64,000 nucleotides of DNA from Acholeplasma sp. (GTDB lineage Bacteria; Bacillota_I; Bacilli_A; Acholeplasmatales; UBA5453), in NCBI GenBank assembly GCA_036677365.1, contig JAVBWN010000006.1, forward strand, positions 8,919-72,918, in the 5' to 3' direction. The translations under genes were made by a program, and so were the position numbers. Below are positions 2,633 to 6,064 of this stretch, piece by piece. The notes below the pieces were generated by a model. It worked only from the letters and a program-made list of their open reading frames with translations, was not told the DNA's origin and did no database searches. The stretch's first letter is position 1. The number at the start of each line of letters is the position of its first letter.

Positions 2633-3859
2633 ATGAAATTTACAAATGCTTTTACAGAAGATTTTGTTTTAACGGATGACATTTTAAGCATTGGTCAGAT
2701 GGCAAAAGAACGTAAAAAACAAAATCCAAACACGATTGACGCGACGATTGGTGCGCTTTTAAATGACCAAGGGGTATTGTTAGCCTTTCCTTCGGTAGAA
2801 CAAATCCTTAAGAATCAAGATTCCACCAAAGTCCGTGCCTATCCGCCAGTCGATGGGGGAAAACCATTCAAGAAGGCCCTCAAACAATGGGTTTTTCAAG
2901 ATAAACTACCACAAATTGAATCGGCATTTAAACTTGAAGTACTCGCCACACCTGGCGCATCCGGTGCTTTATCCAATGTGCTCGCCAATTATGTGACTAA
3001 AGGGGATATGGTCGTCTTACCTGACATCTTTTGGAGTAATTACGCAGCCATCATCAACGCCACCGAAGCTGGTCACGTAACCTATCCAATGTTTAAAAAC
3101 AATGCGTTTAATTTGGAAGGATTCAGAAAGACCACCACTTTAATCGCGAAAGAAACGAATAAAGTCGTTGTATTGCTCAATGACCCTTGTCAAAATCCAA
3201 CCGGGTATTCACTTTCAAAAACAGAACTTGAAGGCTTGATTGAACACCTCGATGACCTCGGTAAAACTGTCCCTGTGGTGCTCATCTATGACATCGCTTA
3301 TTTGGATTATGCCGATTTAAATTACGCCGATACGAGAACGCGATTCTTATCTTTCCTAAAGGTAAACTCATCGATGTTGATTACCATCGCTTTTAGCGCA
3401 TCCAAAACTTTTGGTATATATGGGTATCGTGGTGGTGGGGTCGTTGCGTTATCTAAAGATGACAGTGTCATTGAAGAATTCAGTCGCGTCGCTTTATATA
3501 AAGCACGTTCAACGTGGAGTTGTCCACCCACCGAACCCATTTTCTTGATGAACACTTTACAAGAACAACCCCTTTTACAACAACAGTTTTTAGGTGAACT
3601 CCAAACGGTTCGTACCCTATTACAAACCCGTGCAAAAGCATTCATTGAAGAGGCCAAACAAGTTCAACTCGTTCATTATCCGTATGTCTCAGGCTTTTTC
3701 GTCACAATCCCAGTATTGGAACCAAAAAAAGTATTTGAGCGACTCAAAGCGAAAGATATCTTTGTCGTACCGCTATCTGGTGCGATCCGTGTCGCTTTAG
3801 CAGCGATATCGGTGGATGAAATTCACGGGCTAGCCGCTAAAATTAAAGCAGAAATCTAA
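2633..3859 (+). CDS. PLP-dependent aminotransferase class I/II (aspartate/aromatic type)
   Basis: NPTG, YDIAY and SASKTFGIYGYRGG PLP-lysine motifs. Confidence 0.88.
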   Translation: MKFTNAFTEDFVLTDDILSIGQMAKERKKQNPNTIDATIGALLNDQGVLLAFPSVEQILKNQDSTKVRAYPPVDGGKPFKKALKQWVFQDKLPQIESAFKLEVLATPGASGALSNVLANYVTKGDMVVLPDIFWSNYAAIINATEAGHVTYPMFKNNAFNLEGFRKTTTLIAKETNKVVVLLNDPCQNPTGYSLSKTELEGLIEHLDDLGKTVPVVLIYDIAYLDYADLNYADTRTRFLSFLKVNSSMLITIAFSASKTFGIYGYRGGGVVALSKDDSVIEEFSRVALYKARSTWSCPPTEPIFLMNTLQEQPLLQQQFLGELQTVRTLLQTRAKAFIEEAKQVQLVHYPYVSGFFVTIPVLEPKKVFERLKAKDIFVVPLSGAIRVALAAISVDEIHGLAAKIKAEI

Positions 3860-3999
3860 GAGGGTAATACCTCTTTTTTCTTTAGCTTGGTCGTGAGCAT
3901 ATAATCCATAATCGATGGCTATCGTGTTATAATTAGAATGTCAAAGTAAAAAATGTAAGGTCTTTGACCTTGAAATCATATGAAAGGTTTGGATGCAGG

Positions 4000-5379
4000 A
4001 TGAACCATACACATACCATATTAACCATTTTCGGTTCGACGGGGGACCTCACCATTCGAAAGCTGTTACCCGCCATCGAAAAGCTTTTACAAGAAAACTT
4101 ACTAGAACCTACCACACAAATCATCGCAGTCGGCAGAAGAGATTACACGACGGAATCGTATTTGGCATTTGTAGAAAAAGAGTTGAAGGTTCAATTCAAT
4201 ACCAAGGCACTGATCCCTCACGTGACTTATTTTAAGTTGGATGTAGACCAAATTGAGGATTATTTAGCCCTCAAAGCCCATATTGAAAAAATCTCAAATC
4301 CAGAAACCAGAAAGGTTTATTATCTGGCTGTGGGTCCTGAGCTTTTAAAAGGCATCGCAACCAACATTGGAGAATCTCAATTGGTTTTGAAGGAAGACTT
4401 GAATTCTAGCATCACTTTCGAAAAACCATTCGGGTCTGATTTAGCCTCCGCCAAAGCCATCAACGCGTTGTTGTGGTCTTATTTCGATGAAAAACAAATT
4501 TATCGTATTGACCATTATTTGGGTAAAGAGATGATTCAAAACATCCTAACAGTACGCTTCGCGAATAAGATATTTGAAAGCATTTGGAACAACAACACCA
4601 TCAAAAACATCAAAATTATCGCGAAAGAAACCGACACGATTTTATCTAGAGCAGGCTATTATGATACCTCTGGTGCGCTAAAAGATATGGTTCAAAGCCA
4701 CCTATTACAAATGTTGTCTTTGGTTGCGATGGAAGTACCAAGGTCTTATAACAGTGAAGATTTAAAAAATGAAAAAGTCGATGTCTTAAGGAAATTGCGA
4801 TATGACCGTAAATCATTGGTCATCGGGCAATATGAGGGTTATCAAAATGAACCCAATATTGCGAAAGACTCAAAAACTGAAACGTTTGTGTTCTTCAAAG
4901 CATTTGTCGATACCCCTCGTTTTAAAGGTGTACCATTTTACTTAATGACGGGTAAAGCCCTAGAACAAAAAGAATCGGTCATCATCATTGAATTTGAAGA
5001 GACTTCGGAACAACACAAATGGGATTTACCGCTTTTTACCAATAAACTCTACATTAAAATTGCCCCACAAGATGGCATCTCTTTAACCTTAAATTCTAAA
5101 GTACCTGGGTTAAGAAATGCAGTTGAAGAAGTCGATTTGGATTACTGTGTGGCTTGTAACGCGGTGGGAAACTTACCTGAAGCCTATGAGAAACTCATCT
5201 TAGATATGACCAAACATAGTAAATCTTTATTTACCCGATGGGATGAAATTGAACTCTCGTGGCAATTCATTGACCAAGTCAAGCAGGACATTGCTTTAAA
5301 ACACATCCCACTCAGAATATATCAAACCCCACAAGCGTTATATGACCTCATTCATGAGATGACAGGAGAGACCATTTAA
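4000..5379 (+). CDS. zwf: Glucose-6-phosphate 1-dehydrogenase
   Basis: GSTGDL NADP motif, EKPFG, RIDHYLGKE signature; start moved to ATG 4000. Confidence 0.95.
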   Translation: MNHTHTILTIFGSTGDLTIRKLLPAIEKLLQENLLEPTTQIIAVGRRDYTTESYLAFVEKELKVQFNTKALIPHVTYFKLDVDQIEDYLALKAHIEKISNPETRKVYYLAVGPELLKGIATNIGESQLVLKEDLNSSITFEKPFGSDLASAKAINALLWSYFDEKQIYRIDHYLGKEMIQNILTVRFANKIFESIWNNNTIKNIKIIAKETDTILSRAGYYDTSGALKDMVQSHLLQMLSLVAMEVPRSYNSEDLKNEKVDVLRKLRYDRKSLVIGQYEGYQNEPNIAKDSKTETFVFFKAFVDTPRFKGVPFYLMTGKALEQKESVIIIEFEETSEQHKWDLPLFTNKLYIKIAPQDGISLTLNSKVPGLRNAVEEVDLDYCVACNAVGNLPEAYEKLILDMTKHSKSLFTRWDEIELSWQFIDQVKQDIALKHIPLRIYQTPQALYDLIHEMTGETI

Positions 5380-6000
5380 ATGAAAATTTACGATATATCG
5401 ATGGAAATCCATCCGGATATGCCAGTGTATAAGGATTTACAATCGAAAAAACCCACATTTAAAAATGTTGCTAACTTTAAAGACAATAGTCACTATGAAA
5501 CAGATGTCACCATGAACGTCCATAGTGGCACCCATGTGGATTTTAATTTGCACATGGTTGAGGGTGGCGAAACCAGCAGTGAAGCCAAATTGGACCATTA
5601 TATCAGCGAAGCACGAGTGTTTGATTTATCTTATGTATTAGAATATATCACCAAAGAAAACTTGGTGAATTTAGCAATCAGAAAAAACGATTTTGTCATT
5701 TTTAAAACCCGAAACTCACAAGATGAAGGGTTCAATCCAAACTTTGTGTTTGTCGCGGAATCTGCAGCGAATTATTTAGCGGAACTCGGCATTAAAGGTG
5801 TAGGGATCGATGCTTTGGGCATTGAAAGAAGCCAACCGGGTCATCCAACCCACAAAGCATTGATGTCTAAAAACATCATTATTTTAGAAGGTCTAAGGTT
5901 GGCCAATATCCGCTCGGGGTCATACACATTGATTGCTTTACCACTCAAAATACGTGGTTTAGATGCATCCCCTGTAAGAGCTATTTTATTAGGAAACTAA
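5380..6000 (+). CDS. Cyclase family (KynB-like) metal-dependent hydrolase
   Basis: HSGTHVD (HxGTHxD) motif, GIDALGIE, ILEGL, DASPVRA; abuts the zwf stop (TAAATG). Confidence 0.9.
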   Translation: MKIYDISMEIHPDMPVYKDLQSKKPTFKNVANFKDNSHYETDVTMNVHSGTHVDFNLHMVEGGETSSEAKLDHYISEARVFDLSYVLEYITKENLVNLAIRKNDFVIFKTRNSQDEGFNPNFVFVAESAANYLAELGIKGVGIDALGIERSQPGHPTHKALMSKNIIILEGLRLANIRSGSYTLIALPLKIRGLDASPVRAILLGN

Positions 6001-6064
6001 GCGATTTAGTTTCCTTTTTGTCATATTTATATCGTGTGTTATAATTGTAATGAGGTATGAACTT

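Follow-up and report, generated by a model that had tools for sequence, protein, structure and literature searches.

A cyclase-family metallohydrolase encoded directly behind zwf is a candidate non-orthologous 6-phosphogluconolactonase

Two types of 6-phosphogluconolactonase (Pgl) are known. The DevB/SOL type (PF01182, TIGR01198) is a metal-independent enzyme of the NagB fold, which is also known as fusions to glucose-6-phosphate dehydrogenase (Zwf), and the YbhE/YkgB type (PF10282) is a β-propeller. The solved enzymes of the cyclase family (PF04199) are amide, lactam or phosphotriester hydrolases, and to our knowledge there is no lactonase among its characterized members. Isatin hydrolases (PDB 4J0N, 5NNA and 5NMP) and a cyclase-phosphotriesterase (8F9X) belong to the same superfamily, the fold of which hydrolyses both ring amides and ester-type bonds. 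Kynurenine formamidase, KynB (EC 3.5.1.9; TIGR03035; PDB 4CO9, 4COB, 4COG and 4CZ1), is a homodimer with a shared active site. Its metal ligands are His50, His54, Asp56, His161 and Glu173, with His60 binding a water molecule (PMC4243253). Two further structures, a Mn-containing metal-dependent hydrolase from Bacillus smithii (8HMO) and a predicted hydrolase from Geobacillus stearothermophilus (1R61/3KRV), have no substrate assigned in their entry titles or in the literature found. In published metabolic models of Geobacillus and Parageobacillus the 6-phosphogluconolactonase gene is absent and a spontaneous or pseudo-reaction has been inserted, with about 40% of the catabolic flux of strain LC300 passing through the oxidative pentose-phosphate pathway (PMC9678985; bioRxiv 10.1101/2021.02.01.429138).

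The locus described here lies in a window of 64,000 nucleotides, the whole stretch of DNA that was analysed, and all of its features are read from the forward strand. The zwf gene (4000–5379) encodes a glucose-6-phosphate dehydrogenase of 459 residues, which scores 438 bits against TIGR00871 (cut-off 401) and contains both PF00479 and PF02781. The open frame given by an ORF finder begins with a TTG at 3964, and the ATG at 4000 is the likelier start. The second gene (5380–6000) encodes a cyclase-family (PF04199) metallohydrolase of 206 residues, the candidate lactonase. The zwf stop codon (TAA, 5377–5379) directly abuts the ATG of the cyclase gene (5380–5382), giving a TAAATG junction (5377–5382) with zero gap. 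An AGGAG motif (5364–5368), the putative ribosome-binding site of the cyclase gene, is positioned inside the 3′ end of zwf, 11 bases before the ATG. Translational coupling of the two genes across the junction is probable. The hexamer alone is no proof in A+T-rich DNA; the adjacency of the genes exceeds chance, and in relatives the gap is 0 to a few bases with a varying junction sequence.

A terminator-like hairpin followed by a T run (3858–3885) ends the upstream aminotransferase gene (PF00155), forming the putative upstream boundary of the zwf unit, and a second terminator-like hairpin of 11 pairs (5991–6022) spans the cyclase stop codon; the hairpins proper occupy 3858–3875 and 5991–6015. 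A separate, strong promoter-like site (6018–6045), matching at 11 of 12 positions, is placed to serve the next gene. These matches, all from consensus scans, suggest that zwf and the cyclase gene form a two-gene unit. The upstream aminotransferase gene and the downstream CotH-family gene were rejected as members, as terminator-like hairpins intervene and neither gene is retained in more distant loci. Paracholeplasma vituli and P. manati, at 92–93% identity, are the nearest relatives with a name, and the host is therefore probably a Paracholeplasma.

The cyclase protein scores 79.3 bits against PF04199 (cut-off 23.1) and contains the HxGTHxD motif (5521–5541). PF04199 and TIGR03035 are the sole profiles to match it, with no homology to DevB/SOL (PF01182, TIGR01198) or PF10282. 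The structure model (pLDDT 95.9) has a KynB-type fold, aligning to 8HMO with a TM score of 0.96 and to KynB with 0.90–0.91, and its structural matches are cyclase-family structures only, with no DevB/SOL fold or β-propeller among them. Neither its sequence nor its fold is related to either known Pgl type. The first-pass annotation had described it as a KynB-like hydrolase, of which the family and the metal-binding motif stand, but it is not an orthologue of KynB: the identity is 25–29% and the score against TIGR03035 is 122.1 bits, under the cut-off of 223.05. It instead belongs to a separate subfamily together with 8HMO and 1R61/3KRV (about 50% identity, TM 0.90–0.98). The subfamily profile gives 297 and 290 bits for 8HMO and 1R61 compared with 111 for KynB, and both structures carry the Tyr-Lys and Glu-Arg-x-Gln signature described below. 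The closest sampled relatives of 8HMO and 1R61 (e.g. loci L126, L081 and L192) are found behind zwf, the loci of the two structures themselves lying outside the comparison. The isatin hydrolases and 8F9X are more remote, being longer proteins of about 20% identity with aromatic or xenobiotic substrates.

The metal-binding motif (5521–5553) contains His48, His52, Asp54 and His58, which align to KynB His50, His54, Asp56 and His60. Helping to complete the site, Glu170 (5887–5889) is equivalent to the bridging ligand Glu173 of KynB, and His158 is equivalent to His161. All six residues are invariant in the 92 subfamily sequences aligned, which points to metal binding by a KynB-type ligand set; the bridging-water histidine and the second-shell acids are likewise shared with KynB (PMC4243253). 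The substrate pocket is different. A signature loop (5818–5853) runs from Gly147 to His158 and contains Glu149, Arg150, Gln152 and His155, standing in place of KynB Ser149, Asp151, Pro152 and Leu158. Arg150 is conserved in 92/92 sequences, and Glu149 and Gln152 each in 91/92. KynB Val42, Ser149, Pro152 and Leu158 align to Glu40, Gly147, Arg150 and His155, and Val40 aligns to His38. The hydrophobic pocket of KynB (Trp20, Val40, Val42 and Leu158, with Ser149) thereby becomes polar and basic, with the aromatic residue kept as Tyr17, which corresponds to Trp20 by motif position, outside the printed alignments. Tyr17 is followed by Lys18 (5428–5433); the first position is Tyr or Trp in 92/92 sequences and the second is Lys in 91/92. 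Cyclases that are not linked to zwf have a different motif here (L108 and L109) and do not keep Lys18, Arg150 and Gln152 together. Lys18 is a candidate phosphate ligand and, with the pocket geometry taken from the alignment to KynB, Lys18, Arg150 and Gln152 may hold a sugar lactone by its phosphate and hydroxyl groups.

The absence of pgl, devB and kynurenine-pathway genes from the window, as originally reported, extends to the whole host genome (1.97 Mb, 99.86% complete) for pgl/devB, kynA and kynU. Profile searches of this genome gave zero matches to PF10282 and to the SMP-30 lactonase family (PF08450). The possibility of a canonical Pgl elsewhere in the genome was rejected, since besides these empty searches both PF01182 matches are NagB: each adjoins nagA and is over the cut-off for TIGR00502 and under that for TIGR01198. 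The presence of two separate nagA-nagB pairs (contigs C35 and C30; L001 and L002) in such a small genome is an observation in itself. Tryptophan dioxygenase (PF03301, kynA) has no match in the host genome and the best match there to kynureninase (TIGR01814, kynU) is 32.7 bits against a cut-off of 246, so a KynB in this organism would have no pathway. Both zwf and gnd are present as single copies and, as no known Pgl is found, the oxidative branch of the host is short of its lactonase alone.

The gnd gene is encoded apart from zwf (L003:961–2415, contig C12). It is a long form, placed within a sugar-acid cluster with a KDG-kinase-like gene and a mannonate oxidoreductase gene; in several relatives a short gnd immediately precedes zwf, and this form was seemingly lost in the host lineage. 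A second cyclase-family gene of the host (contig C28, L198:1192–1776) is shorter and overlaps an MGS-domain (methylglyoxal synthase-like) gene. Its product has 26% identity to the cyclase protein over 73 residues and is without the subfamily signature, and the gene is not near zwf.

Among 200 genomes of Mycoplasmatota, 35 contain zwf and 20 of these encode a close relative of the cyclase protein (E at most 1e-58), in all 20 cases directly behind zwf. Neither PF10282 nor a DevB over the cut-off is found in any of the 20, and PF10282 is present in all 15 of the other zwf genomes. Both states occur inside the families f2 and f8. In several Pgl-bearing genomes of f8 (L039, L041, L053 and L061) the gene immediately after gnd-zwf encodes a protein with a patatin-like motif at its N terminus. 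Across 251 Bacillota genomes, zwf is found in 40 and the subfamily in 27, none of which contains a known Pgl; 26 of the 27 subfamily genes lie 700 bp or less from zwf. The remaining 13 zwf genomes consist of seven with PF10282, three with DevB beside zwf and three with neither. The third sample, 151 genomes of Bacilli, contains 98 with zwf, and after correction 48 of these have the subfamily only, 46 PF10282 only and four both. An initial tally here was 46/46/4/2; the two genomes with neither (G474 and G491) were reassigned, as each carries, immediately after zwf, a divergent and insertion-bearing member of the subfamily that the first search missed. In this sample 41 of the 50 first matches are directly behind zwf and 48 of the 50 within 5 kb.

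Pooling the three samples and removing duplicates gives 165 zwf-positive genomes: 93 with the cyclase subfamily only, 65 with a known Pgl only, four with both and three with neither, for which a pooled Fisher p-value is inflated by kinship among the genomes. The subfamily is thus present in 97 of the 165, compared with 69 for both known types of Pgl together. The pairing noted in the first-pass annotation is conserved, and it is nearly exclusive with known Pgl. The known enzymes, which catalyse the very reaction proposed here for a protein with no homology to them, occupy the complementary set of genomes and can also be neighbours of zwf; PF10282 is sometimes within a few kb (G079, G143, G163 and G174) and DevB adjoins it in G352, G363 and G424.

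An independent scan of metagenome contigs agrees with this picture: among 67 informative loci, 60 have zwf at a distance of at most 400 bp and none has pgl nearby. Six of the 67, belonging to two lineages, have neither zwf nor gnd within reach. The gene order gnd-zwf-cyclase or zwf-cyclase recurs in Caldalkalibacillus, Haloplasma, Clostridium oryzae, Tepidibacillus and Aeribacillus, and the neighbourhoods inspected showed neither a phosphatase nor a gluconate kinase as a conserved partner. No relative was found on viral contigs, leaving carriage by phage unsupported.

Close relatives are absent from the zwf-negative genomes of the three samples (165, 211 and 53 genomes, the last two overlapping slightly), a count in which misses similar to those of G474 and G491 are possible. 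Outside the samples, Thermohalobacter berrensis has the gene, with zwf and gnd not found in a genome of no stated completeness. Three Bacillota genomes (G205, G427 and G446) have zwf and gnd and neither the cyclase subfamily nor a known Pgl, meaning that the lactonase step is manageable without any of the three types. A fourth type of lactonase or a bypass may operate in these organisms, and no further lactonase candidate shared beside zwf was seen in them. G446 has 12 cyclase-family matches, none of them near zwf (the loci of the trio are L118, L119, L120 and L121).

The non-independence of related genomes was addressed using a zwf gene tree of 127 rows, which were chosen and not random. On this tree the state changes between cyclase and Pgl at least 11 times, compared with 36 times on average once the labels are shuffled. 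Among eight independent pairs with branch support, an average of 6.4 agree and none opposes (sign test, median p 0.03).

A direct physical link is provided by the protein P0121 (733 residues; L079:332–2533), in which both Zwf domains and the cyclase are encoded in one frame, recalling the fusions of DevB. This fusion is known from one contig and could be an assembly or strain-level event. The gene behind it encodes a HAD hydrolase (L079:2584–3222). Two other fusion proteins, P0122 and P0123, join generic cyclase domains of about 35% identity, outside the subfamily, to HAD hydrolase and class II aldolase domains. The subfamily also occurs on an Exiguobacterium plasmid (NZ_CP040675, 42490–55092; L193), where zwf, pgi and gndA are divergent from hxlA, hxlB, the cyclase gene and a Cof-type HAD gene. 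This gene set amounts to formaldehyde oxidation by the cyclic ribulose-monophosphate route, with no enzyme but Pgl missing. The plasmid is mobilizable, and the cassette, which resembles a formaldehyde-detoxification system, also contains an HxlR-like regulator and adjoins an IS1182 transposase.

The marks of gene displacement seen here are dependence on zwf, clustering with zwf and gnd, and exclusion of known Pgl. The adjacency, the absence of known Pgl, the near-exclusive distribution, the fold and the conserved residues were each computed directly; the genomic case for non-orthologous displacement in central metabolism is strong, and the reaction is one that we infer. On these comparisons the 206-residue protein is very probably a non-orthologous, metal-dependent 6-phosphogluconolactonase (EC 3.1.1.31) acting on the δ-lactone released by Zwf. 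The original proposal that the cyclase may supply the lactonase step gains support from both the genome-wide absence of alternatives and the distribution. The two genes would be co-transcribed as a two-gene message, Zwf would produce 6-phosphoglucono-1,5-lactone and NADPH, and the cyclase would open the lactone using a hydroxide bound to the metal at His48, His52, Asp54, His158 and Glu170. The polar and basic pocket (Lys18, Glu40, Arg150, Gln152 and His155) should suit a phosphorylated sugar lactone, and Gnd, encoded elsewhere, would then consume the 6-phosphogluconate. In E. coli lacking Pgl, spontaneous hydrolysis of the lactone inside the cell, at about 4 per hour at 37 °C, amounts to less than 1% of glucose uptake, and growth is reduced by about 30% (bioRxiv 10.1101/2023.11.29.569206); at so low a rate an enzyme is useful, which provides a selective reason for keeping one.

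Such a strain of E. coli also disposes of the lactone by dephosphorylation and export, excreting gluconolactone, and the lactone modifies its proteins (bioRxiv 10.1101/2023.11.29.569206). It is therefore conceivable, though unlikely, that the lactone is removed through spontaneous hydrolysis or a bypass, with the cyclase clearing a by-product: a γ-lactone, dephosphorylated gluconolactone or, by amide hydrolysis, (phospho)gluconoyl-amines. Such a role would account equally for the link to zwf and for the exclusion of Pgl, amide hydrolysis is the usual chemistry of the cyclase family, and HAD-family genes lie behind the cyclase on the fusion contig and the Exiguobacterium plasmid. However, the KynB-type cavity is narrow (about 7 × 12 × 10 Å; PMC4243253), a poor fit for protein substrates, the near-invariant Lys18 and Arg150 would favour a phosphorylated ligand, and a conserved phosphatase or gluconate kinase is missing from the neighbourhoods inspected. 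A one-for-one swap is more simply caused by direct replacement. That the protein also, or instead, strips phosphogluconoyl adducts from amines is quite improbable.

Less credible still is a passenger role, in which the protein is some other hydrolase (e.g. of a nucleotide cofactor) or a regulator of Zwf that simply accompanies zwf; lineage history together with spontaneous hydrolysis would then explain why Pgl is lacking. The orphan copies in Thermohalobacter and the metagenome loci fit this idea, as do the three genomes that run zwf without a recognized lactonase, and spontaneous hydrolysis is accepted in the published thermophile models (PMC9678985; bioRxiv 10.1101/2021.02.01.429138). A hitch-hiking gene would not be expected, however, to trade places with Pgl repeatedly and independently within single families, and Pgl in all 15 cyclase-less zwf genomes of Mycoplasmatota indicates that mesophiles here keep the step catalysed. 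Finally, a kynurenine formamidase (arylformamidase) or similar aryl-amide hydrolase placed beside zwf for an unrelated reason would share the fold and metal ligands and match the names that many members bear in source databases, but this identity is rejected as close to untenable given the TIGR03035 score, the missing tryptophan dioxygenase and kynureninase and the exchange of Val42, Pro152 and Leu158 for Glu, Arg and His, and it leaves the zwf dependence and the Pgl exclusion unexplained.

If the protein is the lactonase, as preferred here, the consequences extend beyond the host. It is likely that the subfamily represents a third, independently evolved and metal-dependent Pgl, the commonest form in the sampled zwf-bearing Bacillota and Mycoplasmatota, that it is the missing enzyme of Geobacillus, and that this is the function of 1R61/3KRV, 8HMO and more than 1000 protein clusters named cyclase or arylformamidase. 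1R61, from G. stearothermophilus and with the full signature, is the natural candidate for the Geobacillus lactonase, and the gap documented there is probably closed by the subfamily. The oxidative pentose-phosphate pathway belongs to central metabolism, and a candidate with solved structures makes this gap testable. No earlier proposal of a lactonase function for this subfamily was found in the mostly open-access literature covered, beyond which 8HMO may have been described; the step itself is an established one, and the enzyme family performing it would probably be new. The cyclase superfamily would gain a lactonase, and a widespread naming error, by which tryptophan-catabolism reactions are falsely implied, would be put right. 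The subfamily would also offer a small lactonase, thermophile versions included, to expression hosts that lack pgl, E. coli BL21 among them.

The wider window contains two other recognizable groups of genes. Upstream of the aminotransferase gene, three genes (494–2593) resemble, by their translations, a capsule-regulation trio of chain-length protein, tyrosine kinase and phosphatase. Downstream of the zwf-cyclase unit, a lipoate-protein ligase gene is followed by an apparently complete and ordinary glycine cleavage system (T, H, P1 and P2; 7608–12823).
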